Below the pieces are notes generated by a model. It did not search any database and was not told the origin of the DNA. It saw nothing but the letters and a program-made list of their open reading frames with translations. Positions 2,420 through 59,502 of a DNA stretch of 64,000 nt are shown piece after piece; within the stretch, counting starts at the first letter, position 1; every line of letters starts with the position of its first letter. The translations under genes were made by a program, and so were the position numbers. The stretch is from Candidatus Kerfeldbacteria bacterium (GTDB lineage Bacteria; Patescibacteriota; Patescibacteriia; UBA10025; JAHIVO01), in contig JACROE010000002.1 in NCBI GenBank assembly GCA_016214565.1, forward strand, positions 280,007-344,006. The letters are read 5' to 3'.

Positions 2420-2421
2420 AC

Positions 2422-5772: not shown

Positions 5773-5792
5773 ACAAAATCATTTCAGTCTTC

Positions 5793-14700: not shown

Positions 14701-15056
14701 TCGCCTGCCTGTTTTAATAACTCCTCTGGCTTAGTGACGAAAAGCGGCTTTTGACCTTTTTCGCCTGTGGCGATTTGCACCGCGACATTGTATGCCAAAT
14801 TATTTAAATACGTACGCAATATATTTTTGAACCCGACGTCAGCCGCGGTCTTCAATGTCTTGCTCAAAATTTCATAAATGGTCCGTGGAATATCACCGAC
14901 GGTGATGCTCACATCCCCAATGCCAAACAACGCCCGTGCCTGCATCGGAACGACCAGAATCGGAATAGCTAATTGCAAAACAAAAAACACCATGGCTCCG
15001 GCGAGTATCAATCGCTGTCCTTTGCTCAAATGGTGATTTTGTTTTGTAGACGACAT
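5793..15056 (-). CDS. giant (3087 aa) cysteine-rich extracellular/surface protein. It has an N-terminal signal anchor, many Cys-rich modules, one dockerin-like calcium-binding repeat pair and a C-terminal PKD-like domain.
   Basis: Single uninterrupted ORF. The N-terminus has a hydrophobic anchor (LILAGAMVFFVLQLAIPILVVP). Paired cysteines are very frequent (e.g. CSGYTGSKCKADSSCPESYLLCPDSLEVTGCTSS...). The dockerin type-I-like tandem motif DVNYDGRLSADDVTLMNEHFSG...GDVNIDGAINIADAVALLNHIN is encoded near 10520..10700. The C-terminus reads VDFDNDGNADYSSVGTYDSGTVFVTHEYTTGGAYPIRIRVIDNWD (PKD-like), encoded near 5800..6100. Confidence 0.85.
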   Translation of the reverse strand: MSSTKQNHHLSKGQRLILAGAMVFFVLQLAIPILVVPMQARALFGIGDVSITVGDIPRTIYEILSKTLKTAADVGFKNILRTYLNNLAYNVAVQIATGEKGQKPLFVTKPEELLKQAGDAAAGDFLDSIASDWLGKTECSGYTGSKCKADSSCPESYLLCPDSLEVTGCTSSIEEKNKCIAAGCRLITCSTEDCPEVDAIVDSDLSNDYHFEYGAPECASNFSLCDLPGPGGPNDRSIQIKLNVLARKALTDQGGASISGRCPLTDIIDKYDEYRTAIDNYEGLLGKTNPNKQYLVEFSKTFNPEATQLGAYLDILNKGKAASDAEVEINKFAQSLAGEFKPVKSKISGAVKTPAGLLSNAATSIFGKSIDPYLTYTGTAIADAVGIFTNTLASKLIQRYIFGVDPATSSGSGGRSGIASFLGGSSPGVTAAKFLFADLQNTNYSVAGTTDILGNLSSCPDPNNPTPTNCVIDTRFRTAIEQELTLRQALEQGLIDGSKPFGFDSNGLEPEYYNGYPYRSLLILRKYRIIPVGWELAAQYGKQFASGNYSLNTLIADYDDIESPFYKLVDPNWVLKSPEVFCRRQGAGEQIIANTPIRNEDTNGDGRIDTKDAATAVVQRQGDYCADEQLCLQENADGSCARYGYCVEDKPVWKFSGTQCDAQFASCQSLTKSDGTVVSYLLNTVETNGCNADNAGCQWYCSSYNNTTRTFECNGKPPGATGSGAKLSFNNDIRQCDSSAAGCTEYIPRLGSGANVLTNTDFETYDRTAAGIYDALKDSPVADHFQGWVSGQDLSGTPNCGLSTLAVSDAYEGFTAIRLATHAADCPGFPASGTGTFTDGGRMLWNVNQPAGLLMGERVEGRSYSLSFYAKTAADDTDCTGSNGKATLYYLPFGSGVGTEANFGTVTATDGWTRYSGTFTVPEVASDEYNAIALSIHRDQTDQCDIIVDNIQFEEGNLTAYKSYDQNPKTFLKQADSCSMLELGCQAYTSVNNGRTVTGVISSPGLCDPNVPGSCDQCPAEFVGCSAFRELAIERPPYRALRDPVSFVPDSGQSCPASAVGCEEYTNLETVAQGGEGKEYYSYIRMCVPSDDPQQRTYYTWEGSNEFGFQLREYSLKKSNQNDGPCTNMGAEGDPIIQAQLGSTWPTCIDGGSVDRDGNGTDEEFYNPATCSPDQVGVNPDCTEYYDTAGVTYYLLRSRVIFASEDCKNFRNSNDGPNMVYHMVPGQGISCQAAYAGCRAYKGNAGDNSRDLYVKDFEDGSIGAWTGNASISTEATSAGGHSMLVSNSAAINNAGDTLGFAAGNQYTITFWARSAIAGTTNVSFALNTTPSLSFTGQASAGELWNRFTVGPVFVPVGADPANAQLVLFSNNAFYIDNIVISEVVENIYKVKGSYKECSGYEGCDEYSDRDGNQHFLKSFSRLCGEDKVGCTAMIATQQSTSPYSSTFTRERYLRGDVNYDGRLSADDVTLMNEHFSGADNYFLNVSPAVGDVNIDGAINIADAVALLNHINNGTSPAEPYYFEEGTTPEDETVYIVDDPEKVCGANQAGCTQLGKPGLDGDGNVTAFTDTYLVVDPDRFGQEMCVFAENQCDAFTSANGSQYYFKDPGQKLCEFKRVSGQDISGWYKLGTDQGAPNCPVSIGICSGGGANDGKICNASSDCDSNFCNRNQNIVPQPVDGWVGACSSGASGCTEYRDPEQVQTGGEIVSRNYSENGGFETFTTTANASIATDGVIDTALPDVFTPWASSQTSAGRCTGDANRTCNTNVNCSAHGAGVCDTSQRVACGLRMHADSQSNTGNVAARVKTYDACGKSVNSSITYHCAINSATTCTSDADCGASDYCLGDQARYIWYGVNTDSITDNRAFKVSFQARLDPNDATCDPSNSGNTDIGFGLVRTIDNRAWPNGRTDYRPYSNFNATNSWTTFENVVTFGSVDPDDWYNTSGSVEELQNNFSMVIRRSVPAGSFSPSPNTCDILIDSFSIVEVADVFDYVPYYYIDETVDQASCNGLVDREEGCRLFNDTSNSELPYVSTLSVDGETPALCADPNECDSNAVIKVIRDRECKRWLECETSVRQEDAEGNVEELCLSRYVCEELDPETGQCTKVGEFESVNQTYDSPAFVSKIQNYTGLVMAGLDWDRRCTNNPSITCTSDAQCGSGTCDDPQIYEGSLPVAAMEEVGSISINGEIIEDGDFGDRDYALNQKLSCPLSASSDTCVETPGLFNATEIALVNLDTAWQPRNLQGGTAVVTWAEEDINNGTIPSTSGNLDENNVARVKTSGNVGAGTANWNGIYYDLHKSAQRSEEYYVSFRLRWGVPASAYDTVRVQFAYVNANGNELDYKTVGDFAPTVNWKEYVYGPIRIGDTNSGAPVDFDSIRLEIVHNFQSGDTVPSVEFYLDDVSMKPVLQTKESDQGLLSRDCRLFPGVDSPYCTYTDENNTTHKGWEGYCLEHDPRYPKYCLNWWPVDLLKGDSSAFSSLKITGYSGRRPLYMCLGAEGNYSTPKDIRGANQTTFSGATVNSDSAGTTRGNCGISFPISPLLNLSYRYRGPMSTIIVNQSGTGECDEAGNMAGTVPASNCQFKTGVCGACDAGDGGTCNAINSTYNAAVGDQYYKWEVRDINFVMQRWAHTDWDCNTTATDEGRSIFILNARNNWDATWSCSGNSIRVRVNWAANNRLQSYTVTMTDGNNGGGAWVQGIFRLNEMCTSIASVVTWDDDKAWFERTNTNSPYLLPDLLYRYHQHTTPYGGIIQPSPAISTPSAWRWDNGVGSGPIYIENKSDDTLAHGGSSYSCPSGGCAGRMCSWNLDNDCSTQSLQRACLEGPDPDDSSDDGYCLGLGEGFCSNNAEIYCRVNSDCLSGVNDFGPCLLGGGGASPITTIPQGNDRLRRLFARPFLAWRWDNATAGYVEDTTNLVGATNLPATWIGQYANMSVCPYSAPKGAAERPLYPNDYCGVPPVIDTVLCGAGGQPSTSGCQNVSVGQLVQLTFNVNADPNQKPVKLIEVDFDNDGNADYSSVGTYDSGTVFVTHEYTTGGAYPIRIRVIDNWDWCGVLKGTGSSCPSGDCRYQVDGSPCANQGWFATGVTANVNP

Positions 15057-15085
15057 GTATGGGGAACGAAACGTGAGCTAAGTGC

Positions 15086-15955
15086 TTACTGTGAATTCGT
15101 ATTAGTACCCTGGGTGTTTTGCTCTAAACTTTCCTGAAAAATACTCAACAGCGTGGCATCGTCAACTTCTGCAAGCGTTTCCTCGGGCACTCCGCTCTCG
15201 ATCAAAAATTGTCTAATCTCTTCAACGGATAAATTCTGCAATGTCTCAAGAGTGATAGTGCCGCCAGTATTGTTTCCAGTTGCAGCATTGTTTGTATTTG
15301 TATCGCCACGTTCATTGAGCAATTGCTGATAGGTCTCAAGCAATTCGTCGTCGGGGATTTGACCTAATAATTCTTCAGATGCGCCAGCGTCGCGCAGAAT
15401 CTTCCGCAGTTCATCCGAGGTGAGATTCTCTGGATCAACCACACCGGCGGCAGAATTTGTATTGTCGTCCGGCTTTATATCACCAAAAATACCGTTAACC
15501 ACCGTGTTTACATTGCCCGCCACAGTCCGAGCGCAATTTTCACCAGATGGGCAATTTGGATCGGTTCCCTGATCAATTTCCTGCTTATCAGTCAATCCAT
15601 CGCTATCACTATCGGCGATGTAGGCGCTAGTTTTGTACCCATAGAACTCATTGTAGTCGGACAGCCCATCACCGTCGGTATCCTTAGTGCGGAGACCCTC
15701 GATACCCGTTAACTGGGTATTGGTGCTTTGGTCTCCCGTCGCCACTGAGCTATTCGCATTAACCTTAGGCCGGAATGGATCGCGCAATGCATCAGCGATA
15801 TACCAACTACCGAAGCCAAGCGCTAGAAAACTTAAAATAACGAGACTGATAAAAGCCCGCTTCTGGATGCGCTGTTCTTGCGCTGATTGCCCCACATACT
15901 CATCGGAAAATAGTTTACGGAGAACATTTTGCTTTTCATTTTTCTCCATCAGCAA
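15086..15955 (-). CDS. membrane-anchored protein (289 aa) with thrombospondin-type-3-like calcium-binding repeats and two ~35-aa helical internal repeats. It is the first gene of the giant-protein operon.
   Basis: N-terminal TM segment (ISLVILSFLALGFGSWYIA). DxDxDG motifs (DTDGDGLSDYNEF; DSDSDGLTDKQEID). Internal repeats LTSDELRKILRDAGASEELLGQIPDDELLETYQQLL and LSVEEIRQFLIESGVPEETLAEVDDATLLSIFQESL. GGAG ribosome-binding site 8 nt before the ATG. Confidence 0.7.
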   Translation of the reverse strand: MLMEKNEKQNVLRKLFSDEYVGQSAQEQRIQKRAFISLVILSFLALGFGSWYIADALRDPFRPKVNANSSVATGDQSTNTQLTGIEGLRTKDTDGDGLSDYNEFYGYKTSAYIADSDSDGLTDKQEIDQGTDPNCPSGENCARTVAGNVNTVVNGIFGDIKPDDNTNSAAGVVDPENLTSDELRKILRDAGASEELLGQIPDDELLETYQQLLNERGDTNTNNAATGNNTGGTITLETLQNLSVEEIRQFLIESGVPEETLAEVDDATLLSIFQESLEQNTQGTNTNSQ

Positions 15956-15975
15956 ATCTCCATTTATGTGTGCCC

Positions 15976-16004
15976 ATTATATCACAATCTGGCCGTAATG
16001 TCAA
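15976..16004 (-). promoter_or_regulatory. consensus sigma70 promoter (TTGACA - 17 nt - TATAAT) driving the giant-protein operon
   Basis: The minus-strand sequence reads tttgacattacggccagattgtgatataatggg. The -35 element is at 15999..16004 and the -10 element at 15976..15981. It lies 20 nt upstream of the 15955 start codon and immediately downstream of the rsmA stop. Confidence 0.6.
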
Positions 16005-16011
16005 ACAACGA

Positions 16012-16875
16012 CTACTGTTTTTTCATAAAGGCGTGCACCACCCTAATCCAGTCCCTGATGGTTAATGTTTGAGGTCGCGATTCTGGGCTAATCTTAGCCG
16101 ACAATAAGGTTTTTTGAACTTCCTGATTTGATAATTTCAGACCTGCCGCCAGGGTGTTATGGAGCTGCTTTCGCCGACCCGAGTAGCCGATCTTAACCAA
16201 TCGAAAAAAATCAGCCGCTGAATATGGCTTTAGTGTTTTCAAAAATCCGTGAACATCTGATCCAATCTTGGTGAGATGTAAAATTGCTGAAGTAACCGCC
16301 GGTGCCGGCCAAAAACTGGATGGCGGCACCAGACGGACTATCTCCGAATCAGCATACAATTGCACAGCAACGCTCAAAACGCTCATGGCGCCAGCCGGAG
16401 CAATGACTCGCTCCGCCACCTCCTGCTGGACTAATACGGTCACCGAGGTCGGCCGAGGCTGGGTCTCAAGAAATTCACGGAGTACCCGGGAAGTAATATT
16501 GTAAGGAAGATTTGAAACTAGCTGATAGGTGCCATCCTGAATAAGCAACGGGAGCGCACGCCGTACCTGAAAAATATCACCGGTTACCAGGTGAAGCGGC
16601 GGGTACACGCTGGTCAATTTGTGAAGCGCGGGTATCAGGCGCCGATCTTGCTCTACGGCAACCACGGTAGCCCCGGCCTCGAGCAAGGCTATGGTTAAAC
16701 TGCCAAACCCCGGACCAATTTCTAATACCCGAGCACCCGGTACAATGCCAGCGGCACGAACCATATCCGTTATAACTGTTTCATCAATTACAAAATTCTG
16801 ACCCTGGCTGCGATCAGGCTTCATACCATACTGCCGAGCTAATGTTTGAATTTCATTTTTTCCCAAATGTTTCAT
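16012..16875 (-). CDS. rsmA: 16S rRNA (adenine1518/1519-N6)-dimethyltransferase RsmA/KsgA
   Basis: Characteristic motifs QNFVID, LEIGPGFGSLT and NLPYNIT. Length 287 aa. Confidence 0.9.
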   Translation of the reverse strand: MKHLGKNEIQTLARQYGMKPDRSQGQNFVIDETVITDMVRAAGIVPGARVLEIGPGFGSLTIALLEAGATVVAVEQDRRLIPALHKLTSVYPPLHLVTGDIFQVRRALPLLIQDGTYQLVSNLPYNITSRVLREFLETQPRPTSVTVLVQQEVAERVIAPAGAMSVLSVAVQLYADSEIVRLVPPSSFWPAPAVTSAILHLTKIGSDVHGFLKTLKPYSAADFFRLVKIGYSGRRKQLHNTLAAGLKLSNQEVQKTLLSAKISPESRPQTLTIRDWIRVVHAFMKKQ

Positions 16876-16881
16876 CGATTT

Positions 16882-18084
16882 CTAAAGCGCCCGAATAAAA
16901 GGAAAGGGGCGCGGTTCATCTTTTTTAAAGAAATATAACAAGCTAAAGAACGCGGCAGTCATAAAGATGATATTCCATGGATCAGATAAATACGTGGCAC
17001 TATAGAAACCAATCAGCCCGGCAACAATTTTCCCCAATGCTAAGGACATTTCAAAAAAAATGGCGTAGGAAAGCGGCCCGACACGACGCGCTTTTTCTAG
17101 GCGTATTGACTCCATCGGAATGTACACCATTTCTTTTGCCAATCGAGCGCTGCCATGGAGCGCCAGGGCGGCCGGCACGCTCCGTATTAATCCGCGAACT
17201 AGCCAGGTGACGACATAGAGCAGAGTGCCTGCACGTAAAATATTTAATCGCGGATATTTATCTGTCAAATGACCAAACCAGAGCACCAACAGAGCCGTTG
17301 CCAGCGTTGCCGATGAAACAACCCACCCGACAGTTAAATAATTGCCGATCACAACATACAAAAAAACCGGCCAAGCCACCAACGCAATTAACTCCTCACC
17401 AAAACCAAAGAAGGCAAAGAAGCTGCGTCGGTGTTCCCGGGAAAATAACTGCAACACTGTTTCACGATACGAAAGTTGAACTCGCGCGTGAATTTCTTTG
17501 ATATGGAGCAGTGGCAGCGCCGAAAGCAGAATTAAACCAGTAACGACAATAAAAAGAACACTAAAATTAAACCATCCCAAAATCAATCCACCTGCCATGG
17601 GGCCAATAATCATCATGACCATACTAACCATCTCAATATACCCGACCTCTCGCCCGCGCTGTCCGGCTCGAGAAAAAATAGTTAAATCAGCATGATAGGC
17701 TGGCCAATACAAGGCTTTTTGTATAGCAAAAATCACCGGGGCCACATAATAGAGCGCACTTACCTCGGATATCCCAAATAAAGTTAAATAGGCGGCAATG
17801 AGAAAAAAATGACTGTAAAATATTGAATGCTCATACCCCAGACGCCCAACCCATGATCCAATAACCGGCAAAAGCACCAGGTACACCCCATATAAAATAA
17901 CATAAAAAAATAGTATCTCTGCTAATGTATACCCAATACTGAATAAAAAAATCGGCTCAAACAGCGAGATCGCGGCGATGCCAAAATCCATCAGCGAGAC
18001 AGCCCAATACAACCCATGTAAACCCCGCGATGGATCTTTTGAAAAATAGTGGGGGGAATGTGAGCGAAAGCGATTGAAAAGCAT
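16882..18084 (-). CDS. MFS-type transporter (about 12 TM helices)
   Basis: 400-aa, uniformly hydrophobic polytopic protein with a 6+6 helix arrangement and a short central loop. Confidence 0.55.
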   Translation of the reverse strand: MLFNRFRSHSPHYFSKDPSRGLHGLYWAVSLMDFGIAAISLFEPIFLFSIGYTLAEILFFYVILYGVYLVLLPVIGSWVGRLGYEHSIFYSHFFLIAAYLTLFGISEVSALYYVAPVIFAIQKALYWPAYHADLTIFSRAGQRGREVGYIEMVSMVMMIIGPMAGGLILGWFNFSVLFIVVTGLILLSALPLLHIKEIHARVQLSYRETVLQLFSREHRRSFFAFFGFGEELIALVAWPVFLYVVIGNYLTVGWVVSSATLATALLVLWFGHLTDKYPRLNILRAGTLLYVVTWLVRGLIRSVPAALALHGSARLAKEMVYIPMESIRLEKARRVGPLSYAIFFEMSLALGKIVAGLIGFYSATYLSDPWNIIFMTAAFFSLLYFFKKDEPRPFPFIRAL

Positions 18085-18087
18085 ACG

Positions 18088-18723
18088 CTATGCCGCTTTG
18101 GCAGGCTGCGCGCCGCGCACTTTCACCGGACCCTGACGAATAATAGTTATCTTCCCATTCTCCAGCCGCACCACGGTAGAAACGGGAACCTCGGGCAAAT
18201 CGCCCGCGTCAAGAATGAGATCAGGCTGCGCATCATTTGCCTGAAACATGCGCAAGACGCATTCAGCAGAATAGCAATTCCCTTTCCCGCTCAAATTGGC
18301 GCTCGTTGATGTGATCGGCGAACCCGCTGCTTTGACCAACATTTGAGCTGCTTGCAAATCAGGTATGCGGACACCAACCGTGGGTAACCCCAGAGTAAGG
18401 AACGGCGGCACGCTCTCCACTTTGTCAAAAATAATTGTCACCGCGCCCGGCCAATACGCATCCATAATTTTTTTCTCAGCAGCAGAAACGCGAGCAATTT
18501 TTTTCAGCATGGTGACCGAATCGACAATCACCGGCAATGGTTTTTGCACCCGTTGCTTGATAATAAATAATTTACCGATCGCGTTTTCATTCAGCGCATC
18601 GGCTGCCAAACCATAAGCAGTGTCGGTAGGATAGGCGACCACGCCGCCTTGCTTCAACACGGCTGCCGCTTGCTCAATAATATTTTTTTCAGGATTGGAG
18701 AGATTGAGACGTACGATATCCAT
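18088..18723 (-). CDS. tsaC: L-threonylcarbamoyladenylate synthase, YrdC/Sua5/TsaC family
   Basis: YrdC signature AYPTDTAYGLAAD. Length 211 aa. Confidence 0.85.
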   Translation of the reverse strand: MDIVRLNLSNPEKNIIEQAAAVLKQGGVVAYPTDTAYGLAADALNENAIGKLFIIKQRVQKPLPVIVDSVTMLKKIARVSAAEKKIMDAYWPGAVTIIFDKVESVPPFLTLGLPTVGVRIPDLQAAQMLVKAAGSPITSTSANLSGKGNCYSAECVLRMFQANDAQPDLILDAGDLPEVPVSTVVRLENGKITIIRQGPVKVRGAQPAKAA

Positions 18724-19199
18724 TATGAATGTGATAAATAATCTTTCACGGTCTTTGATGTTAGATCAATGGCAGGTGCGCGATTCTCGAGAAGATTCAG
18801 TCCGGCCAATACATGATCAACCACCGCCTGGGTATATGACTGCCTGAGCTCTTCGCTGGGAAATCCGAAATACATATTGCGGTGCGCCAGCTGGTAAATG
18901 CAGTCCTCCAGCATTTCTCCCGGTTCTTCATTCACTGCCAAGGTCAGCGGATGGGCAAACGACGGGGGCGTATTCACCAGATACATGGGAATAACCGCGT
19001 CTGCATGCTCCGCCCAATCATACCCACTGTACTGGGGGATGAGCTCGAGGATGCGAGCCTGCGTCTGCTCGAATATCTTTTCAAAATCAGCACCGATTCG
19101 AATAATGCGTTGCCAGGCATCAGCAAAAGGGTCATCCGAGACCGCTTGGAGCCGGCGAGCATACTCATAATTATACAAAAGTTCAATTTCGGGAAGCAT
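18723..19199 (-). CDS. hypothetical protein (158 aa)
   Basis: ORF between leuS and tsaC. The stop/start overlaps tsaC by 1 nt. No recognisable motif. Confidence 0.5.
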   Translation of the reverse strand: MLPEIELLYNYEYARRLQAVSDDPFADAWQRIIRIGADFEKIFEQTQARILELIPQYSGYDWAEHADAVIPMYLVNTPPSFAHPLTLAVNEEPGEMLEDCIYQLAHRNMYFGFPSEELRQSYTQAVVDHVLAGLNLLENRAPAIDLTSKTVKDYLSHS

Positions 19200-19236
19200 T
19201 GGTGTTTTTTCAGTATACCTTATTTAGTCAGAAACC

Positions 19237-22200
19237 TTAAACCACAAAATTCACCAGTTTTTTGGGAACAAAAATTACTTTTTTTGGTTCACCAGTCAGA
19301 TGCCGCTGCACGGCCACACTGGTTTTTGCTTTTTCAACGACCACTTCCTGAGGAGCATCAGTCGGCATTACCAGCGTGTCGCGAAGTTTGCCATTTACCT
19401 GGATAGCATAGGTGGCTTCTGTTTTAACGATTTTGGCTGGATCAAATTTCGGCCACCCCTCGTTTTCTATATACGTCGTGTGTCCCAGCTGGTGCCAGAG
19501 TTCTTGCGCCAAGTGCGGGGCAAATGGTGCGAGTAATTGTAAAAATCTTTCAAATGAAGTTTGTGCCACAGAAGCAGTGCCCCATTCATTGGTTAATTTC
19601 ATCAAATCACTAATGCAGGTATTAAAACGGAACAGCTCAATCTTTTCGCTGACTGATTGGATAGTCTGATGCAGTAATGTACTCCCAACCTCAGTTTTGC
19701 CCCGCTCAACCCGATCAAATATTTCCCAGACCCGCTCAACAAATCTCCGAACACCAATGATCCCCTTGGTACTCCACGGCTTCGCATCTTCAAACGGCCC
19801 CATGAACATTTCATACATGCGCAGCACATCCGCGCCGTATTCTTTGACGACATCGTCAGGATTAATCACATTGCCGCGCGACTTCGACATCTTCTGTCCA
19901 TCCTCGCCCAGGATAATCCCCTGATTCTTCAGTTTCACAAATGGTTCTTCACCGCATTCGTTCGGCACTGCGCCAATGTCAAACAAAAACTTATAAATGA
20001 AACGCGCGTACAAAAGATGCAGCACCGCATGCTCCGCACCACCCACATACATATCGACCGGCAACCAGGCTTTCAATTTTTCTGGATCAGCCAGCTGTTT
20101 GTCATTATGTGGATCGCAATAGCGTAAGAAATACCAGTTAGACCCAGCCCACTGCGGCATGGTATTTGTCTCGCGTTTGGCTGGTCCGCCGCACTCAGGG
20201 CAGGTCGTATTGACCCATGATTCAATTGCGGCCAGTGGCGATTCGCCGGTGCCGGTTGGTTCGTATTTCTCCACGTCGGGCAAGGTAACGGGCAAATCTT
20301 TTTCCGGGACTGCCGCCGCCTCGCATTTGGCGCAATGCACAATCGGGATTGGTTCGCCCCAGTACCGCTGGCGGGAAAATAACCAATCGCGCATTTTGTA
20401 ATTGATGGATGTTTTGCCTAAATCCTTTTTCTCCAGCCAGGCAATAATTTTTTTCTTGAACTCAACCGAATCCATGCCGTTATACTCGCCGGAATTGATC
20501 ATCTCACCATCACCCGTCCAGCAAGTGTACTCAATGTCGGAATCTAGGGTACCCCAAGCGCCGGCGCTTCCCATGGGCGGCTGCATCTTCGGCATCACCC
20601 GATCTGGCTGAATGACAGGCACAATCGGCAGTTTAAATTTCTGGGCAAAGGCGTGATCCCGCTCATCGTGCGCTGGCACGGCCATGATGGCGCCCGTACC
20701 ATAAGTGCTCAACACATAATCAGCTATCCAAATGGGCATCTTCTTATCATTAACGGGGTTGACTGCGTACGCGCCGGTAAAAACGCCAGTTTTATTTTTT
20801 GCCAAATCAGTGCGCTCCAGATCAGATTTGGCCGCCGCTTCTTTTTGGTATTGCTCAACAGCACTGCGTTGTTTGTCAGTCGTGATTAAACCAACTAATG
20901 AGTGCTCGGGTGACAGCACCACATACGTCGCGCCAAATATTGTATCCGGTCGGGTAGTAAATACCGTTACCTGTTGATTAGCTCCAGATGCAATTGCTGC
21001 CAACACCGTCGGCACGGCAAACGATCCGAGTTCGCGATTAGCATAATGCGGACGTGGCGCTTGTTCCATAATTAAGTGGGCGCCCAATAATTCCGCTAGC
21101 GCCTTTGGTTCAGCTGGTGCCACCAAGTCATCATGCGTATCGCCAATCACGGTAATCCGTGGCACCTGGCGATTAATTTTTTTCACATCATAATCATAGT
21201 CACTATACTGCGAAACTCCCGCGGGATAGGTGACATTCGGTTGAGCTGGAACATGGGGCGGTGCAAGCAATACCAACCCAGCTAATTTCAAACCTAATTG
21301 CTGGACGGCTTCCAATGCCAGCACGCAGCCAAGGCTATGCCCAAGAATAACCGTGTCTGAATCCGGTTTCAAGGATTTCACAATTTTAAGATTTTCCTCC
21401 AGGCTCGGCATCTCCTCGATTGATAGCTGTGGCGCGTCAACGCGCGTACCATGCTTCTCAAGTTCGGCGCGGAGCCATACTTTGAAACCCGTGTCCGGAC
21501 TGCCCTGGTACCCATGTAATATGATGACTCGTTTTGGCCACTGCGCTTCAATCGGAAAATGTATCGTCGCACCTTCGCTCCGACCAATCCAATTGCGCTG
21601 TAATAATTTGATTGACTCTGGCCAATCAACAGTATCCAATCCATGAAGCAATCGCTCGATATAGCGCTCGTCAGTAATTTTTACTAACCACTGTTTAATT
21701 TGTTTCTTGGTCACCGGCGTGCCGCAACGCTCGCATTTTCCGTCTACTACTTCTTCATTAGCTAAGCCGGTTTTATCTTTCGGACACCAATTGATCGGCG
21801 CGTCAGCTTCGTAGGCGAGGCCGTGCTTGAACAGCTGAACAAAAATCCACTGAGTCCAGCGGTAATATTTTGGATCAGACGTAATAACCTCGCGTGACCA
21901 ATCATAGGAAAACCCGAGACTTTGTATCTGCCGGCGCATGTTGGCAATGTTTTCTGCGGTGGTTTTGGCGGGGTGGGTGCCAGTTTTGATAGCGTAATTC
22001 TCTGCGGGCAGGCCAAATGAGTCAAACCCCATCGGGTGGAGCACCGATTTTCCCCGAGCGCGAAGATAGCGGGTATAGATATCGGATGCGGTGTACCCCT
22101 CTGGGTGGCCGACGTGCAAACCCTGCGCCGATGGATAGGGGAACATATCCAATACGTACGACGAATCACCCGATGCCGTATCCGAAACACGCCAAACCTG

Positions 22201-22263
22201 ATCCCGCTTCCAGGATTCCTGCCAGCGTTGCTCAACTTCCGAATGATTGTAGTGTTTCCGCAT
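19237..22263 (-). CDS. leuS: leucyl-tRNA synthetase carrying an inserted ~190-aa alpha/beta serine-hydrolase-like domain at the start of the CP1 editing domain
   Basis: HVGH (HIGH-class) motif at P-Y-P-S-A-Q-G-L-HVGH. KMSKS motif present (QKMSKSRGN). RNWIGRSEG...TTRPDT are the conserved CP1 flanks. Between them lies an extra segment (aa ~241-432; nt 20980..21555) with IILHGYQGSP and GHSLG motifs. The track start at 22275 is GTG. The ATG at 22263 (MRKHYNHSEVEQRW) is the more likely start. Confidence 0.93.
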   Translation of the reverse strand: MRKHYNHSEVEQRWQESWKRDQVWRVSDTASGDSSYVLDMFPYPSAQGLHVGHPEGYTASDIYTRYLRARGKSVLHPMGFDSFGLPAENYAIKTGTHPAKTTAENIANMRRQIQSLGFSYDWSREVITSDPKYYRWTQWIFVQLFKHGLAYEADAPINWCPKDKTGLANEEVVDGKCERCGTPVTKKQIKQWLVKITDERYIERLLHGLDTVDWPESIKLLQRNWIGRSEGATIHFPIEAQWPKRVIILHGYQGSPDTGFKVWLRAELEKHGTRVDAPQLSIEEMPSLEENLKIVKSLKPDSDTVILGHSLGCVLALEAVQQLGLKLAGLVLLAPPHVPAQPNVTYPAGVSQYSDYDYDVKKINRQVPRITVIGDTHDDLVAPAEPKALAELLGAHLIMEQAPRPHYANRELGSFAVPTVLAAIASGANQQVTVFTTRPDTIFGATYVVLSPEHSLVGLITTDKQRSAVEQYQKEAAAKSDLERTDLAKNKTGVFTGAYAVNPVNDKKMPIWIADYVLSTYGTGAIMAVPAHDERDHAFAQKFKLPIVPVIQPDRVMPKMQPPMGSAGAWGTLDSDIEYTCWTGDGEMINSGEYNGMDSVEFKKKIIAWLEKKDLGKTSINYKMRDWLFSRQRYWGEPIPIVHCAKCEAAAVPEKDLPVTLPDVEKYEPTGTGESPLAAIESWVNTTCPECGGPAKRETNTMPQWAGSNWYFLRYCDPHNDKQLADPEKLKAWLPVDMYVGGAEHAVLHLLYARFIYKFLFDIGAVPNECGEEPFVKLKNQGIILGEDGQKMSKSRGNVINPDDVVKEYGADVLRMYEMFMGPFEDAKPWSTKGIIGVRRFVERVWEIFDRVERGKTEVGSTLLHQTIQSVSEKIELFRFNTCISDLMKLTNEWGTASVAQTSFERFLQLLAPFAPHLAQELWHQLGHTTYIENEGWPKFDPAKIVKTEATYAIQVNGKLRDTLVMPTDAPQEVVVEKAKTSVAVQRHLTGEPKKVIFVPKKLVNFVV

Positions 22264-22488
22264 AGTACAATTCACTCTAACATTTCACTACTGCCAATTC
22301 AAGCGATATAATCAGTACCGATTGACATGGCTATATACCTATGGTATTGTTCGCAATTGAAACTTATGGAGATAAGGAGTGGCGCCAAATATACCTATTT
22401 GGCGGGTTAAACAGTAATTTATCATTGTTTGAGCCTCCGGTTTAAATCAATCATCATAACCGCATTATTGCGCGCCCTGGAAGGGGTG

Positions 22489-35151: not shown

Positions 35152-35167
35152 TGTTCCACGTGAAACA
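35152..35167. repeat. palindromic 16-mer family copy a (TGTTCCACGTGAAACA, one mismatch), 17 bp upstream of the aminotransferase ATG
   Basis: Direct reading of the sequence. Members: 35152..35167, 37111..37126, 37818..37833, 38139..38154. Confidence 0.8.
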
Positions 35168-35205
35168 CGCAGGTAGTGTAGCTATGCCCCGATGGATGAA
35201 TAAAA

Positions 35206-36132
35206 TTATGAAGCGTGGAGAGCGGCTAAGTATTTTTCTGCATCGAGCGCCGCCATACAGCCCAAACCTGCCGCGGTCACTGCCTGCCGGTATTTCCAAT
35301 CTTGAGCATCCCCTCCAGCAAATACACCCTCAACCGACGTTTTGGTATTATCGGTCACCTTGATATACCCCTTAGTTAATTCAAGCGCTCCGCCTAAAAA
35401 TTCAGTATTTGGTTTATGCCCAATCGCCACAAACAACCCCTGTACGGGCACTGTTTCGACATCGCCTGACTCAATGTTCTTAACGCGAACCCCCGTCACA
35501 ACCGTGTCGCCCAATACTTCCTCCACGACGGTAGAGAACCGCATGGTAATCTTTGGGTTTGATTGAGCTCGCTCAATCATAATGCGGCTCGCTGCCATCT
35601 TTTCCTTCGGCCCTCGGACAATGACGGTGACTGATTTCGCAAATTTAGTCAAAAAGGTGGCCTCCTCCATCGCCGTATCACCGCCGCCGACGATAGCCAC
35701 ATCCTTATTTTTGAAGAAAAAAGCATCACAGGTAGCACAGGCGGAGACTCCTTTGCCCCGCAACCGCTGTTCACTCTCTAAACCAATCCACTTGGCACTG
35801 GCGCCGGTGGCAACGATAACCGTATCAGCGGTATATGATGTATTCGCTGTATTAATCGTAAAGGGTTTTTTGGTGAAATCAACGCTGGTGACATTGTCCA
35901 TCACGATCTCCGTGCCAAACCGTTTGGCCTGCTGCATCATCCGATCCATCAGGACCGGACCGGCAATGTCTTCGGTAAAGCCTGGATAATTCCCAACGTC
36001 AGAAGTCGTGGTTAACTGGCCGCCAGGCTGTTCCCCGGCAATTAATAATGGTTTAAGAGAGGCCCGACCTAAATAAATACCGGCGGTTAACCCCGCTGGT
36101 CCTGAACCAATGATAATAACTTGATGATGCAT
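35206..36132 (-). CDS. trxB: thioredoxin reductase
   Basis: FAD motif GSGPAG. Redox-active CATC. NADPH motif GGGDTA. Length 308 aa. Confidence 0.9.
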   Translation of the reverse strand: MHHQVIIIGSGPAGLTAGIYLGRASLKPLLIAGEQPGGQLTTTSDVGNYPGFTEDIAGPVLMDRMMQQAKRFGTEIVMDNVTSVDFTKKPFTINTANTSYTADTVIVATGASAKWIGLESEQRLRGKGVSACATCDAFFFKNKDVAIVGGGDTAMEEATFLTKFAKSVTVIVRGPKEKMAASRIMIERAQSNPKITMRFSTVVEEVLGDTVVTGVRVKNIESGDVETVPVQGLFVAIGHKPNTEFLGGALELTKGYIKVTDNTKTSVEGVFAGGDAQDWKYRQAVTAAGLGCMAALDAEKYLAALHAS

Positions 36133-36144
36133 ACAGATATAAAG

Positions 36145-36468
36145 TTACGCCAGCGCCGCATTCAGCTGGCTAGCCATGGTTTCTTTAGTCTGAATGCCTG
36201 AGGCTTGCCAAACTATTTTACCGCCCTTAAATACGGCCAGGGTAGGAATACTCATGATGCCGTATTCCTGCGCCTTGACCGGGCTCTCGTCTACTTCGAG
36301 TTTTGCAACTTTTGCTTTGCCTTCAAATTCTCCAGCAACCTGCTCAATAATCGGTGCCTGTACCTGACACGGTCCGCACCACTCTGCCCAAAAATCAACC
36401 AAAACTGGTTTGTCAGATTTGAGGACTTCTTGATCAAAGGTTTCATCGGTCACATGTACTGCTGACAT
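36145..36468 (-). CDS. trxA: thioredoxin
   Basis: WAEWCGPCQ active site. Length 107 aa. Confidence 0.92.
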   Translation of the reverse strand: MSAVHVTDETFDQEVLKSDKPVLVDFWAEWCGPCQVQAPIIEQVAGEFEGKAKVAKLEVDESPVKAQEYGIMSIPTLAVFKGGKIVWQASGIQTKETMASQLNAALA

Positions 36469-36490
36469 AGAATAATGAAATAATAAATTA

Positions 36491-36745
36491 TTAACTAAAT
36501 TTTAATAAGGTCGACGCCACTTTATTCAGGCGCTGCATGTCTTTCTTTGAACTGGAACGCAAGCAGCTGTCCGTCTCTTGTTGTAACAATTTCAAAGTGG
36601 CTTGTTCAATCGAGGAACGTGCGGCCATCAGCTGGATAATCACTTCGTCGCAATTGCGGCAATCCTGAACCATCCGCTCGACGCCATCGAGCTGGCCTTT
36701 GATACGGTGAATATGATTAATAAACTGTTGATCGTCTTTCTTCAT
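36491..36745 (-). CDS. CsoR/RcnR/FrmR-family (DUF156) transcriptional repressor with a two-cysteine, no-histidine sensor fingerprint (CstR-like)
   Basis: HRIKGQLDGVERMVQ...CRNCDEVIIQLMAARSSIEQATLKLLQQ...DSCL follows the CsoR-family fold signature. Start at MKKDDQQ (36745). The upstream track extension is encoded by the operator palindrome. Confidence 0.8.
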   Translation of the reverse strand: MKKDDQQFINHIHRIKGQLDGVERMVQDCRNCDEVIIQLMAARSSIEQATLKLLQQETDSCLRSSSKKDMQRLNKVASTLLKFS

Positions 36746-36747
36746 AG

Positions 36748-36792
36748 ATATACCCCCTGGGGGTATATTACCACGTCTCTTCAATTTGTCAA
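36748..36792 (-). promoter_or_regulatory. csoR-family gene promoter (TTGACA-16-TAATAT) with an overlapping 21-bp perfect palindromic operator ATATACCCCCTGGGGGTATAT
   Basis: Palindrome at 36748..36768 overlaps the -10 (36765..36770). The -35 is at 36787..36792. GC-rich interrupted palindromes of this type (TACCC...GGGTA) are the known CsoR-family operator architecture. Confidence 0.65.
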
Positions 36793-36976
36793 CACCCGCC
36801 ATATCCTGGCAACAATACAAAAAGAAACGTTTTACTTCTTACTAATATATGTCAGACTTTTTTCTTCGGGGCACCCCGTCCGGCCCTGCCGGATGGGGAA
36901 AAGCGGGCACATTGCTGACGTGCGGAGTGGGACGAACTTGATTCGTCACACGAAGGACGAAGTAATTGTGAACGCG

Positions 36977-37052
36977 TGGTGGACCTCAGGGGAGTCGAAC
37001 CCCTCACCTCTTCCATGCCATGGAAGCGCTCTACCAGATGAGCTAGAGGCCC
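36977..37052 (-). tRNA. tRNA-Ala (anticodon GGC), CCA encoded
   Basis: Cloverleaf drawn by hand. Acceptor GGGCCTC/GAGGTCC with G3:U70. Anticodon loop ATGGCAT. T-loop TTCGACT. 76 nt. Confidence 0.85.
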
Positions 37053-37108
37053 AAGGTGAATGTAACTAGTAGATTATCATAATTATAATTCTTGGCAATC
37101 TTTTAATA

Positions 37109-37128
37109 AAATGTTCCACGTGGAACAT
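37109..37128. repeat. palindromic motif copy b (AATGTTCCACGTGGAACATT, perfect), about 60 bp upstream of the tRNA-Ala(GGC) 5' end
   Basis: Perfect 20-bp palindrome with a CACGTG core. Confidence 0.85.
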
Positions 37129-37234
37129 TAAAAAGATTTATGTTAAACTTTGCAACTAATGAGAAAGTTCATAAATTTATTTAAAGAAACAAAGAAACCA
37201 AATAGAACAAACTCTCAAATGAAAGGTTTAAACC

Positions 37235-37738
37235 ATGAAAGCGTTAACCATCAGAATTGGTGTTACGCCTCGTTCGAAACAGTACCTTCCAGCGGAAATT
37301 TTCCATCCATCTGTCCCAACGGTACTTAAGGTTACCTTGCCGAAAAGACGAGGAAAAGGTAAAGAGCACTTTCGCCTAACCTTAGAGGTAGTCACTTTCT
37401 GCCATCAACGGTCGGAATGGCCGACTGTCTTAAATTTGAAAAGGTCAAAATGCCACTTTTCCTTTGTTGCAAGTGATGAATCCTCTGAAAACCCCGGTGG
37501 AATCTTTGCACGCATTGCAATGAACCGATATCAGCGGGGCTTAACCAAAAGAGGTACAAGGTGGATCTACCGCTACGGATCATTACATTGGGAAAGCAGA
37601 CATGCTTTTATTCACCAAAGTGACACTTTGAAACCTCCCACCGAGGCCAAGGTGTCGAAATGGATCATGATTAGCATCGTCAACCTCAGTACCGAATTCT
37701 ACGACTGGCTCGAGGAAGTTGAAAAAGTTAGTGCTTAA
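37235..37738 (+). CDS. hypothetical basic protein (167 aa) lying between the two tRNA-Ala genes
   Basis: AAAGG ribosome-binding site 8 nt upstream of ATG. Clean ORF followed by a perfect hairpin terminator. No family recognised. Confidence 0.5.
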   Translation: MKALTIRIGVTPRSKQYLPAEIFHPSVPTVLKVTLPKRRGKGKEHFRLTLEVVTFCHQRSEWPTVLNLKRSKCHFSFVASDESSENPGGIFARIAMNRYQRGLTKRGTRWIYRYGSLHWESRHAFIHQSDTLKPPTEAKVSKWIMISIVNLSTEFYDWLEEVEKVSA

Positions 37739-37760
37739 AATAGCAATTTTTTCTAAACTC

Positions 37761-37790
37761 AAAAGACTCCTGATTTCAGGAGTCTTTTTC
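37761..37790. terminator. bidirectional rho-independent terminator
   Basis: Hairpin aaaagactcctgatttcaggagtctttt, an 11-bp perfect stem flanked by A-run and T-run. Confidence 0.7.
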
Positions 37791-37813
37791 TATTATCTAA
37801 ATAAATGGTTTTC

Positions 37814-37837
37814 AAATTGTTCCACGTGGAACAATTT
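37814..37837. repeat. palindromic motif copy c (AAATTGTTCCACGTGGAACAATTT, perfect 24 bp), between the terminator and the tRNA-Ala(CGC) 3' end
   Basis: Perfect palindrome. Confidence 0.85.
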
Positions 37838-37947
37838 ATAAGCTAAAATAACCACTGCCGTTGTTTTTCCAAAAAATCATAAAAACATAATAACACATAG
37901 CCCCAATGCTTTCTGCTACTATATATTTCAGAACATGTATGCGTAAT

Positions 37948-38020
37948 TGGACCAAAGGGGAGTCGAACCCCTGACCTCTGCAATGCGAATGCAGCGCTCT
38001 ACCAACTGAGCTATTGGCCC
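37948..38020 (-). tRNA. tRNA-Ala (anticodon CGC), CCA not encoded
   Basis: Acceptor GGGCCAA/TTGGTCC with G3:U70. Anticodon loop TTCGCAT. The T-arm is identical to that of the GGC isoacceptor. 73 nt, followed by ATT. Confidence 0.85.
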
Positions 38021-38040
38021 ACAGTTCTAAATAAATATCG

Positions 38041-38115
38041 TGGTACCCCCACCAGGAATCGAACCTAGATCCATCCCTTAGGACGGGATTGTTCTATCCA
38101 TTGAACTATGGGGGC
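38041..38115 (-). tRNA. tRNA-Arg (anticodon CCT), CCA encoded
   Basis: Anticodon stem ATCCC/GGGAT with loop GTCCTAA. T-arm CTAGG-TTCGATT-CCTGG. G1:U72 wobble at the acceptor end. Confidence 0.8.
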
Positions 38116-38135
38116 AAAAATTTAAAATGCTTTTA

Positions 38136-38157
38136 ATATGTTCCACATGGAACATAT
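38136..38157. repeat. palindromic motif copy d (ATATGTTCCACATGGAACATAT, one central mismatch), 24 bp upstream of the tRNA-Arg 5' end
   Basis: Direct reading of the sequence. Confidence 0.8.
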
Positions 38158-38264
38158 GCAGTGTATATTTTTGTGTTATGTATTTTTTCTCTTAAATTAG
38201 CCAAAAAAATGAGTTTAAAATAGTTATTTGGCCAACTTTATTTAAAAAATTGAGTCGTAAAAGA

Positions 38265-38528
38265 CTAGTTAACAAATAGCTCGGTAATTGTGTGTGCCCA
38301 ATTATTTACCAGGTTTGAATTCCGGTCAATTTCCATAATTACTGCCAGACCAATAAAAAGGACAAGGAGTATGCCAATGACCCAAATAAGATCATGTCTG
38401 ATCTGTTTTCGCATTAGCTTGTCTGAAACCTCATCAGACGTGGGAACGTGCGTCGCAGTTCCATCAGTCGTAGTGGCGGGCTGTAAATGCTCCATTCCCT
38501 GAAAATATCGCTTTTTTTCTTTGCTCAT
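38265..38528 (-). CDS. small membrane protein (87 aa), hypothetical
   Basis: Single TM helix (LIWVIGILLVLFIGLAVIM). Confidence 0.45.
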   Translation of the reverse strand: MSKEKKRYFQGMEHLQPATTTDGTATHVPTSDEVSDKLMRKQIRHDLIWVIGILLVLFIGLAVIMEIDRNSNLVNNWAHTITELFVN

Positions 38529-38623
38529 AGTGGCTATGATGTCTTTTTAAGTAGTATTGAGTGTATACTATCACTTCTAATTATTCAATTGTTCATTGAC
38601 GGTACTGCATTACTGATACTAGA

Positions 38624-39088
38624 ATGAAGGGACGCAATCTAATATTTAACGTTTTAACGAGTATGGCCTTATTCCCCAACTCTCAAAGCAACGCCTCACA
38701 CCCCGGACAGGCAGAAACAATTATCGGCCCATCCGTCAAAGTAGAAGGTATTTTTCATGGTGAGGGCAACGTCACGGTCGAAGGAATCGTACAGGGTACC
38801 CTCAAGACAAACCATGATTTAACCATTGGCCAATCAGCAAAAGTCAAAGCTGAAGTATCGGCAAAAAATTTAATTCTCTCCGGGGAAATTCGCGGGAATG
38901 TCACCATCAGTGAACACACCCGACTCTCCAGCACAGCGAAAGTATACGGCAATCTTCAGACTACTCGGCTCGCGGTCGAAGAAGGTGCTATCATTCAGGG
39001 AAAAATAATGATGGGTGTTGATACCGAACGAGAAACGTCTGAGCAGCGGCCAGAACGAATGGATAAAAAAATTAATCACGGCAAATAG
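38624..39088 (+). CDS. bactofilin-family cytoskeletal protein
   Basis: Repetitive beta-helical segments typical of the bactofilin/DUF583 core (VKVEGIFHGEGNVTVEGIVQGTLKTNHDLTIGQSAKVKAEVSAKNLILSGEIRGNVTI...KVYGNLQTTRLAVEEGAIIQGKI). Confidence 0.6.
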   Translation: MKGRNLIFNVLTSMALFPNSQSNASHPGQAETIIGPSVKVEGIFHGEGNVTVEGIVQGTLKTNHDLTIGQSAKVKAEVSAKNLILSGEIRGNVTISEHTRLSSTAKVYGNLQTTRLAVEEGAIIQGKIMMGVDTERETSEQRPERMDKKINHGK

Positions 39089-49406: not shown

Positions 49407-49482
49407 TGGTGGGCGCGCTAGGACTCGAACCTAGGACATGGTGTGTATAAGACACCCGCTCTACCAACTGAGCTACGCGCCC
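49407..49482 (-). tRNA. tRNA-Ile with a UAU anticodon (reads AUA), CCA encoded
   Basis: Acceptor GGGCGCG/CGCGCCC. Anticodon stem GGTGT/ACACC with loop CTTATAC. T-arm CTAGG-TTCGAGT-CCTAG. 76 nt. Confidence 0.75.
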
Positions 49483-56638: not shown

Positions 56639-59134
56639 ATGGCCAAACTGAAAAAAAATCCTAAAGCAGAAAAGCCGATTGTTGAGCCCGCGCGACAGCT
56701 GGCGCAGGTACAAAAGCAACCCATCGTTACCGAGATGCAATCGTCCTACATCGACTATGCCATGTCGGTGATTGTTTCGCGTGCCTTGCCAGACGTCCGC
56801 GATGGGATGAAGCCCGTCCACCGCCGTATCCTCTATGCTATGTGGACCATCGGCCTCCGGGCTGGTGCTAAATTCCGCAAATCCGCTACCGTGGTTGGTG
56901 AGGTGCTCGGTAAATACCATCCTCATGGCGACTCCGCCGTCTACGACTCGATGGTTCGTATGGCACAGTGGTTTGCTATGCGCTATACGCTGGTCAATGG
57001 CCAAGGCAACTTCGGCTCCATGGACGGCGACGGCGCCGCAGCCATGCGCTACACCGAAGCAAAACTCTCTCGCATTTCCGAAGAACTCCTTTTTGATATT
57101 GAAAAAGAGACGGTCAATTTTATTCCAAACTACGACGGTTCACAGCAAGAGCCACAAGTGCTCCCGGCCAAGCTGCCCAACCTTCTACTCAATGGCACCG
57201 TGGGCATTGCCGTGGGTATGGCCACCTCCATCCCACCGCACAACCTAACGGAAATTATTGATGGCACCATCCACCTGATTGAGCACCCCGACGCGTCAAT
57301 TGAAGATCTGATGGAATTCATCAAAGGCCCGGACTTCCCCACCGGCGGTATTATTTTCAACAAACGAGATATCGCGCATGCCTATGGCACCGGTAAAGGC
57401 TCAATCGTCATGCGCGCCAAAACCGATATTGTGGAAGAGGCGAATGGCCAATTCCGTATTATCGTGACTGAGATACCCTACCAGGTGAATAAATCCACCT
57501 TGATCGAGCATATTGCTCAGCTGGTCACCGATAAAAAACTAGATGGTATCAAAGACCTGCGCGATGAATCTGACAAAGATGGCGTACGCATTGTGATTGA
57601 ACTAAAAAAAGACGCCTATCCGAAAAAAGTCCTCAATCGCTTATTCAATCTGACCAATTTACAGACCTCGTTCCACGTGAACATGTTGGCCTTGGTGGAC
57701 GGCATCCAGCCACGCGTGCTGAATCTGAAAATGGTGCTCGAAGAATACATCAAGCACCGCGAAATCGTCATCAAACGCCGCACTCAATACGATTTAGATA
57801 AAGCCAAAGCCCGCGCCCATATCCTCGAGGGGTTGGTCAAAGCCGTGGATAAGATTGATGCGGTGATTAAAGTTATTAAAGCATCGAAGGACAAAGACCA
57901 AGCCCGGACAAACTTGATGCAGAAATTTAAATTTACCGAAGCGCAAGCCATCGCCATCCTGGAAATGAAGCTCTCCCAGCTGGCTAATCTGGAACGGCTC
58001 AATATCCAAGGCGAACTCAAAGAAAAACGCGCTTTGATCAAAGAATTGGAACTGATTCTTGCCTCACGCAAGCGCATCCTCGGCATTATCACCACCGAAC
58101 TCAAAGAAATTAAGGACAAATTTGGCGACGAGCGCAAAACGCATATCAATGCCGGCGCCATCAATGAATTCACTCAGGAAGACCTGATCCCGAATGAATC
58201 AACGGTCATCATGGTGACCCGCGATGGCTATCTCAAACGCGTACCGCCAGAAACATTCCGCGTGCAGAAACGCGGCGGCCGGGGCGTGATTGGATTGACC
58301 ACCAAAGAACAAGACTCCGTCGAACAACTGATAACAACCACCACGCATGCCGACCTGCTTTTCTTCACCACCAAAGGCCGGGTCTTCCAGCTCAAAGGCT
58401 ACGATGTCCCGCCTGCTTCCCGTACGTCAAAAGGTCAGGCCATCGTTAATTTCCTCCAGCTCGGGCAAGAAGAAAAAGTTACCGCAACGCTGTCATTAGC
58501 TGACTTGGGTGATTTCAAATTCCTGGTGATGGTGACCCGCAATGGCGTCATCAAGAAAGTAGACATGGAAGATTTCAAAGTCGTCCGCCGCTCAGGCTTG
58601 ATCGCCGTGAAACTGAAATCAAACGACACGCTCGAATGGGTCAAACCATCCACGGGTGGCGATGATATTCTCATCGTTACTGAACAGGGTCAATCAATCC
58701 GCTTCCGCGAGAAACAACTGCGTGCCATGGGTCGCAATGCCGCGGGCGTACGTGCCGTCAAACTGAAAGGAACTGACCATATCGCCGGCATGGACATGAT
58801 TACTGACGGCAAAGCCATGCAAAATGAACAACTCTTGGTCGTCATGGAAAAGGGATACGGCAAACGCACCAACCTCTCCAACTATCGCGTCCAGGGTCGT
58901 GGCGGTTCGGGCATCAAAACTGCCAAGATCACGCCGAAGACCGGCAAGATTGTGTCCGCCTTCATCGTCAATGCGAAACTTGAGCAAGAAGATCTGATCA
59001 TCATTTCTGACAAAGGCCAAGTCATCCGCATGCCCTTGAAAACCGTGTCCGTCCTCGGCCGCGCCACCCAGGGTGTCCGCTTGATGCGCCTGTCTGACGA
59101 CAAAGACGGCGTCGCCACCGTGACGTTTGTGTAA
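56639..59134 (+). CDS. gyrA: DNA gyrase subunit A
   Basis: [28 protein letters not shown] with the active-site Tyr region. C-terminal beta-pinwheel repeats. Length 831 aa. Confidence 0.95.
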
Positions 59135-59162: not shown

Positions 59163-59187
59163 ACCTTCCCTCTAAAGGAAGGTTTTT
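59163..59187 (+). terminator. rho-independent terminator after gyrA. Its 3' arm contains the ribosome-binding site of the next gene.
   Basis: accttccctctaaaggaaggt followed by tttt and then ATG at 59188. Confidence 0.6.
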
Positions 59188-59502
59188 ATGTATACCTATT
59201 ACGTTTATATCATGACAAATAAGAGAAACCATATTCTATATATTGGCGTCACTCGAAATTTAGAATACCGAGTGTGGGAACATAAGAATAAAGCCAAACC
59301 TGGATTTACCAGCCGATACAACGTTACCAATCTAGTATATTATGAAGAATTTGCAATGCTGATGGATGCGATACAAAGAGAAAAACAGCTCAAGAACTGG
59401 CATCGCGGCTGGAAGTTTAACTTAATCCGGAAGTGTAACCCGAAAATGGTTGACCTGGCAGCTGAGTGGTATGAGAGAGATCCTGAAACAAGTTCAGGAT
59501 GA
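59188..59502 (+). CDS. small stand-alone GIY-YIG nuclease-domain protein (YhbQ-like)
   Basis: YYVYIMTNKRNHILYIGVTRNLEYRVWEH matches the GIY-YIG core (YIG...R...E). Length 104 aa. Confidence 0.75.
   Translation: MYTYYVYIMTNKRNHILYIGVTRNLEYRVWEHKNKAKPGFTSRYNVTNLVYYEEFAMLMDAIQREKQLKNWHRGWKFNLIRKCNPKMVDLAAEWYERDPETSSG

Follow-up and report, generated by a model that had tools for sequence, protein, structure and literature searches.

Predicted chromosomal parS sites interleaved with tRNA genes in a Candidatus Kerfeldbacteria (Patescibacteria) genome

The parS sites of bacterial chromosomes, which form the cis-acting centromere of the ParABS system, follow the highly conserved consensus TGTTNCACGTGAAACA (PMC7022226). 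Among the sites compiled for individual species are TGTTCCACGTGGAACA of Pseudomonas putida, TGTTCCACGtGGAACa of Pseudomonas aeruginosa and TGTTCCACGTGGAACG of Myxococcus xanthus, and the published chromosomes carry between 2 and 22 parS sites (PMC7022226, Table 1). The parS clusters of Caulobacter crescentus and Corynebacterium glutamicum consist of several close sites, spread across a few to tens of kilobases, which jointly nucleate a single loading zone for ParB and SMC, and their adjacency to oriC and parB was shown experimentally. The cluster described here is located in a 64-kb stretch of DNA, referred to as the window, from an uncultivated Candidatus Kerfeldbacteria bacterium (contig JACROE010000002.1, positions 280,007 to 344,006). 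Four palindromes in this window are predicted to be chromosomal parS sites of this member of the Patescibacteria, an assignment to which we attach a probability of about 0.93.

The whole window was searched with the sequence TGTTCCACGTGGAACA at up to three mismatches, and the result was compared with shuffled sequence. The search yielded five matches, with 0.15 expected, and none of 100 shuffles gave five. When compared with the consensus TGTTNCACGTGAAACA or its symmetric form TGTTCCACGTGGAACA, two of the copies, starting at positions 37112 and 37818, show no mismatch and are identical to the Pseudomonas parS site to the base, and two further copies, at 35152 (TGTTCCACGTGAAACA) and 38139 (TGTTCCACATGGAACA), deviate from TGTTCCACGTGGAACA at one position each. 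The copy at 35152 matches the Bacillus subtilis-type consensus TGTTNCACGTGAAACA exactly, and the copy at 38139 is off by one central base. The fifth match, at 33299, was rejected as probable noise, as it has three mismatches and falls within the coding sequence for glutamate dehydrogenase. All four palindromes are found within 3 kb, each in an intergenic gap, and three tRNA genes are interspersed among them. With Logan contigs from this organism (L083 on the right and L085 on the left), the readable sequence was extended to window coordinates of about -8852 to 73821. No further copy at up to three mismatches was detected in the approximately 20 kb of added flank, which brings the contiguous sequence covered to about 84 kb. 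An earlier note on this DNA had listed four copies, two of them with single mismatches, and no other copy in the 64 kb save a partial match in gyrA; this count is borne out by the search, and the gyrA match is real (GTTCCACGTGAAC, 13 nt, positions 57669-57681). The perfect palindromes of 20 and 24 bp recorded in the same note are likewise evident on direct inspection of the letters.

Most of the papers listed by a full-text search for the 12-nt core TTCCACGTGGAA deal with parS and ParB or with ParB-like systems, including those of Pseudomonas, Myxococcus, Xanthomonas, Burkholderia and Bdellovibrio, among others, and no literature linking parS or ParB with Patescibacteria was found. The window sites share with the chromosomal parS sites of B. 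subtilis (the Spo0J sites, TGTTNCACGTGAAACA) and Pseudomonas the same 16-bp inverted repeat, the occurrence in few clustered copies and the retention between related genomes. They differ from them in that the host belongs to the uncultivated Patescibacteria, or candidate phyla radiation (CPR), that tRNA genes alternate with the sites, and that neither parAB nor oriC was found in the 84 kb read. The window sites fit the primary-chromosome consensus, whereas plasmid parS sites and those of secondary chromosomes, such as gTTTATGCGCATAAAc of chromosome II of Burkholderia cenocepacia and NTTTACANTGTAAAN of chromosome II of Vibrio cholerae, differ in sequence (PMC7022226, Table 1).

A related genome was sought by a scan with the thioredoxin reductase, taking one genome per species. 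The closest relative found (locus L003) is a Patescibacteria metagenome-assembled genome (JBMOKY010000001.1, 123-144 kb of 1.148 Mb), the thioredoxin reductase of which is 75% identical. Its gene order matches that of the window from infB through the genes for a DAGK-like kinase, a bactofilin and a small membrane protein to tRNA-Arg(CCT), tRNA-Ala(CGC), an open reading frame (ORF) and tRNA-Ala(GGC), and continues with an extra ORF, CsoR, trx, trxB and the aminotransferase gene. Counterparts of three window sites are present in the corresponding gaps (Table 1), and the site at 37818 is without a counterpart. Only the core is kept: the bases outside the 16-mer are unconserved between the two genomes, and the distance between site and tRNA gene is 23 nt in the window versus 131 nt in the relative for tRNA-Arg and 59 nt versus 186 nt for tRNA-Ala(GGC).

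The background set comprised all 165 fetched loci with a total of 2.17 Mb, drawn broadly from bacteria and including some archaea. A metagenome scan with IF-2 delivered mostly distant bacteria, as matches to the universal GTPase motif swamped it, and was used as background only. When the loci were scanned with the 16-mer at up to two mismatches, sites were confined to the contigs of the organism itself (L001 and L002), the relative and one chance match. Because of this confinement, the element is judged from its sequence distribution to be rare and specific, and what is kept appears to be the 16-mer itself and not a promoter that contains it. The sequence identity with parS, the low and clustered copy number, the conservation in the relative and this specificity are among the reasons for the parS assignment, and the pattern fits a conserved protein-loading site and not a promoter operator, a mobile palindrome of the repetitive extragenic palindrome (REP) or miniature inverted-repeat transposable element (MITE) type, or a recombination site. 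The coordinates of the features discussed here are collected in Table 1.

Table 1. Predicted parS sites, neighbouring features of the window and counterpart sites in the relative (locus L003, own coordinates).
Feature	Position	Strand	Sequence or match	Context or source
Predicted parS site 1	35152-35167		TGTTCCACGTGAAACA	Gap between thioredoxin reductase and aminotransferase genes, 16 nt upstream of the aminotransferase ATG as called in L001
Predicted parS site 2	37110-37129		20-bp perfect palindrome AATGTTCCACGTGGAACATT; core TGTTCCACGTGGAACA at 37112-37127	Between tRNA-Ala(GGC) and ORF167; 59 nt to the tRNA-Ala(GGC) 5' end
Predicted parS site 3	37814-37837		24-bp perfect palindrome AAATTGTTCCACGTGGAACAATTT; perfect core at 37818-37833	Gap between ORF167 terminator and tRNA-Ala(CGC) 3' end
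Predicted parS site 4	38137-38158		Core TGTTCCACATGGAACA at 38139-38154, one central mismatch, palindromic AT flanks	Upstream of tRNA-Arg(CCT), gap 23 nt; 3' end of the small membrane-protein gene about 110 nt away
tRNA-Ala(GGC)	36977-37052	minus		ARAGORN
ORF167	37235-37738	plus	No match but itself (MBI5037375.1, HZC01_01525, on a 1,116,013-nt contig) among 5.8 billion proteins; no Pfam domain	
ORF167 terminator hairpin	37761-37788		Strong	
tRNA-Ala(CGC)	37947-38021	minus		ARAGORN
tRNA-Arg(CCT)	38041-38115	minus		ARAGORN
Small membrane-protein gene	38265-38528	minus		
Bactofilin gene	38624-39088	plus		About 470 bp from site 4; position kept in L003 (6249-6668)
L003 site 7158	7158		Perfect core	Gap between small membrane-protein gene and tRNA-Arg; counterpart of 38139
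L003 site 8434	8434		Perfect core	Gap between ORF and tRNA-Ala(GGC); counterpart of 37112
L003 site 10980	10980		TGTTTCACATGGAACA	Junction of trxB and aminotransferase genes; counterpart of 35152

The spacing of the sites bears directly on the leading idea of the earlier note, according to which the palindromes are operators through which a dimeric transcription factor controls the two tRNA-Ala genes, the tRNA-Arg gene and the aminotransferase gene. A perfect palindrome suits a dimeric regulator, and three of the four sites are indeed located upstream of a transcription unit, the positions near the tRNA genes and the aminotransferase ATG having been read correctly with gaps of 59, 23 and 16 nt. 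In addition, chromosomal ParB itself can alter the expression of genes beside parS in some species (discussed in PMC7022226). However, the sequence is that of the universal parS and is not specific to the lineage, and no shared sigma-70-like promoter match overlaps the sites on the tRNA strand. The site at 37818 follows the terminator of ORF167 and is located on the 3' side of tRNA-Ala(CGC), as the earlier note had also seen; it therefore occupies a gap between converging units and has no promoter to serve, so that the sites are not restricted to positions upstream of regulated units. Since the spacing to tRNA-Arg and tRNA-Ala(GGC) differs in the relative, a fixed register with a promoter is likewise not apparent. 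An operator function is thus very unlikely. The view of the palindromes as binding sites of a dimeric protein was right in kind, as ParB is a helix-turn-helix dimer, but an operator of tRNA or rRNA promoters finds no support in the parS sequence, the convergent copy and the changed spacing. As to the proposed tie to tRNA promoters, the three slots are kept in the relative but the distances to the tRNA genes shift several-fold. The association with tRNA genes is accordingly regarded as positional: the sites fill AT-rich intergenic gaps outside the tRNA promoters, where palindromes would impose no constraint on coding sequence.

Two further roles were considered and rejected. Consensus scans placed neither a terminator nor a promoter on the sites except for a weak promoter-like match on the plus strand at 38142, which faces away from the tRNA gene, and a search for RNA elements with Rfam at a permissive threshold returned only the three tRNAs and sub-threshold noise.

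The gene slot between the two perfect palindromes is variable, as shown by the orphan status of ORF167, its location in a stretch of low GC content (0.40 vs about 0.50) and its replacement in the relative by an unrelated gene (7689-8387) encoding a 232-aa membrane protein. The earlier note had also offered a REP/MITE-like mobile palindrome or a site-specific recombination site, and this slot lends some substance to the alternative that the palindromes are such mobile elements or targets or ends of a site-specific recombination event, with ORF167 as a cassette between two perfect copies: the orphan gene is bracketed by both perfect palindromes, the relative carries another gene in the slot without the copy at 37818, and tRNA genes are classic integration targets. 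A mobile or recombining element is nevertheless hard to reconcile with only four copies, all of them within 3 kb, and with the lack of a dispersed family in the contiguous 84 kb and the 2.17 Mb of fetched loci. Moreover, neither ORF167 nor the genes around it showed a domain of the transposase, RAYT or integrase type in the Pfam scan, and the flanks beyond the palindromes share no terminal repeats or duplications. Because sites on both flanks of the variable slot are kept in the relative, they are apparently older than the gene swap. An origin of the four sites by mobility or recombination is therefore considered extremely unlikely. The notion that ORF167 itself is a RAYT or IS200-type transposase flanked by its own hairpins was discarded, as the protein has neither a Pfam match nor homologues.

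The parS assignment has to be weighed against what the surroundings of the sites lack. A cognate ParB is expected to combine a helix-turn-helix domain with a GERRxRA CTP-binding box and is usually encoded together with a ParA in the same genome, and parS sites are usually located in the origin-proximal domain, i.e. within the roughly 20% of the chromosome around oriC. In the window, however, neither parB nor parA was found by Pfam among the 58 ORFs scanned, with the 3094-aa ORF left out, or by a scan of window ORFs of at least 80 aa for the signature motifs GERR and KGGxGK, and the Logan flanks of approximately 9-10 kb on each side contained no ParB or ParA either. The cognate ParB of the sites is consequently an assumption. 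Likewise, no dnaA gene was found in the window by the Pfam search of the 58 ORFs and the signature-motif scan; DnaA boxes occur in the window at chance level (14, with 14.1 expected), and the sign of the GC skew, whether calculated in bulk or from four-fold degenerate sites, does not change within the window, the flanks or the locus of the relative. A ParB-signature scan of all 165 fetched loci provided nothing usable as a lineage-specific query.

Given that neither parAB genes nor an origin were found near the sites in the window and flanks, the palindromes might also be assigned to a diverged paralogue of the ParB family, Noc-like or another ParB-like CTPase, which would then act in a process different from segregation. 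Some ParB-like clamps do have other roles, for instance BisD, and Noc-binding sites and other ParB-paralogue sites are also palindromes of 14-16 bp for helix-turn-helix dimers of the ParB fold. Nevertheless, the known paralogues recognise altered sequences, the Noc site being ATTTCCCGGGAAAT, whereas the canonical parS is here kept to the base, so that an assignment to a paralogue is hardly credible.

Returning to the predicted parS sites and their possible partners, an SMC_N-domain protein is encoded on the right-hand Logan contig (L083, positions 5800-8460, corresponding to about 66983-69643 in window coordinates), approximately 3-6 kb past the window's right-hand boundary and about 30 kb from the parS cluster. 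As with the clusters of C. crescentus and C. glutamicum, several close sites are accompanied here by an SMC-family gene in the vicinity. The protein comprises 886 aa, which is short for an SMC protein. Since it is encoded nearby, a condensin-type partner is plausibly present, and the protein itself is a possible condensin partner of ParB-parS. The second candidate is the bactofilin, the gene of which adjoins the cluster in both genomes (Table 1). Bactofilins of M. xanthus reportedly scaffold the ParABS system, and a functional link between bactofilin and parS is conceivable.

The orientation of the genes flips at the tRNA/parS cluster (approximately 37000-38600), with 22 of 23 genes on the left encoded by the minus strand and 19 of 24 on the right by the plus strand. 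An oriC at the cluster, as suggested by the AT-rich gaps and the divergent orientation, was rejected in view of the chance-level DnaA boxes and the unchanged sign of the skew. For the same two reasons the origin is not in the window, and the skew places it to the right. With the origin on that side, replication would run head-on into the transcription of infB, rbfA, clpP, rny, gyrA, nusB and rnc. The corresponding direction in the relative is towards the beginning of the 1.148-Mb contig, on which the cluster is found at about 130 kb; this position agrees with proximity to the origin only if the contig begins near oriC. Because the orientation switches at the cluster without a switch of the GC skew, it may be argued that the cluster is not linked to the origin, that the point of transcriptional divergence is set by a ParB/SMC loading site and not by oriC, that spreading of ParB also regulates the three tRNA genes and that the adjacent bactofilin serves as the anchor, as in Myxococcus; this proposal is improbable.

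At chromosomal parS sites of other bacteria, ParB acts as a CTP-dependent clamp that leaves the site and slides, giving rise to chromatin immunoprecipitation peaks of up to tens of kilobases; together with ParA, the resulting ParB complexes compact the ori domain and determine its position, and the loading of SMC depends on them in several species (PMC7022226). The steps proposed for the present locus are taken from this established ParB-parS family and not from the organism under study. A ParB dimer would recognise each of the 16-bp inverted repeats by its helix-turn-helix domains, and binding to parS would stimulate the CTP-dependent closure of ParB into a clamp that slides onto the flanking DNA. 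Given such sliding from four closely spaced sites, one large ParB complex would be nucleated over the tRNA cluster and its neighbours. This joint complex may in turn serve as the handle for ParA-driven segregation and as the loading point of the SMC condensin.

The remaining gene content of the window was assigned by means of Pfam. To the left of the cluster, almost all genes are encoded by the minus strand and include leuS, ksgA, a two-component system, lspA and genes for a Mg-chelatase-like ATPase, a DksA-type zinc-finger protein, glutamate dehydrogenase, the aminotransferase, thioredoxin reductase, thioredoxin and a CsoR-like repressor. The genes to the right, mostly on the plus strand, encode the bactofilin, a DAGK-like kinase and a DHH phosphoesterase and include infB, rbfA, clpP, rny, ymdB, ftsH, rpsA, gyrA, nusB, rnc and pyrF. 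The leucyl-tRNA synthetase (19237-22284, minus strand) contains an insert of the Ser_hydrolase or alpha/beta-hydrolase type at residues ~253-407 (PF06821, E=1.4e-12), located between the catalytic and the editing domains. Three very large ORFs without a Pfam assignment occupy positions 1148-15077 on the minus strand and specify proteins of 3094, 1116 and 423 aa. The first of them was left out of the Pfam scan of the window, and the Logan-contig gene at the same position gave a faint CBM_4_9 match; the 1116-aa protein has a multi-pass membrane region at its N-terminus, a highly charged C-terminus and no Pfam match, and the 423-aa protein is likewise without a match. These giant ORFs look like typical surface or secretion-type proteins of the CPR. 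The left-hand Logan contig (L085, positions 11416-21272, about -8852 to 1000 in window coordinates) harbours an unusual paralogue array of six consecutive genes of the PEP-utilizers family (PF00391), with an interspersed HAD hydrolase gene. Directly downstream of gyrA, a stand-alone GIY-YIG nuclease-domain protein of 108 aa is encoded (59176-59502, plus strand). Bacteria normally read AUA codons with a lysidine-modified CAU tRNA; ARAGORN predicted a tRNA-Ile with the anticodon TAT (UAU) at 49407-49482 on the minus strand, which is uncommon in bacteria.

The parS element is already known as the textbook bacterial centromere, and the host lineage is the sole new point. Only mildly unusual are the interleaving with tRNA genes and the coincidence of the cluster with a switch of gene orientation that is not accompanied by a switch of GC skew. 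The parS label disposes of a false lead, be it a regulator of tRNA genes or a novel mobile palindrome, and pinpoints the predicted partition locus of an uncultivated Kerfeldbacteria genome. If the prediction is correct, the universal recognition sequence of ParB is preserved to the base in a CPR lineage with a reduced genome, and the parS cluster would help to find the ori domain and the zone of SMC loading in genomes of this kind.

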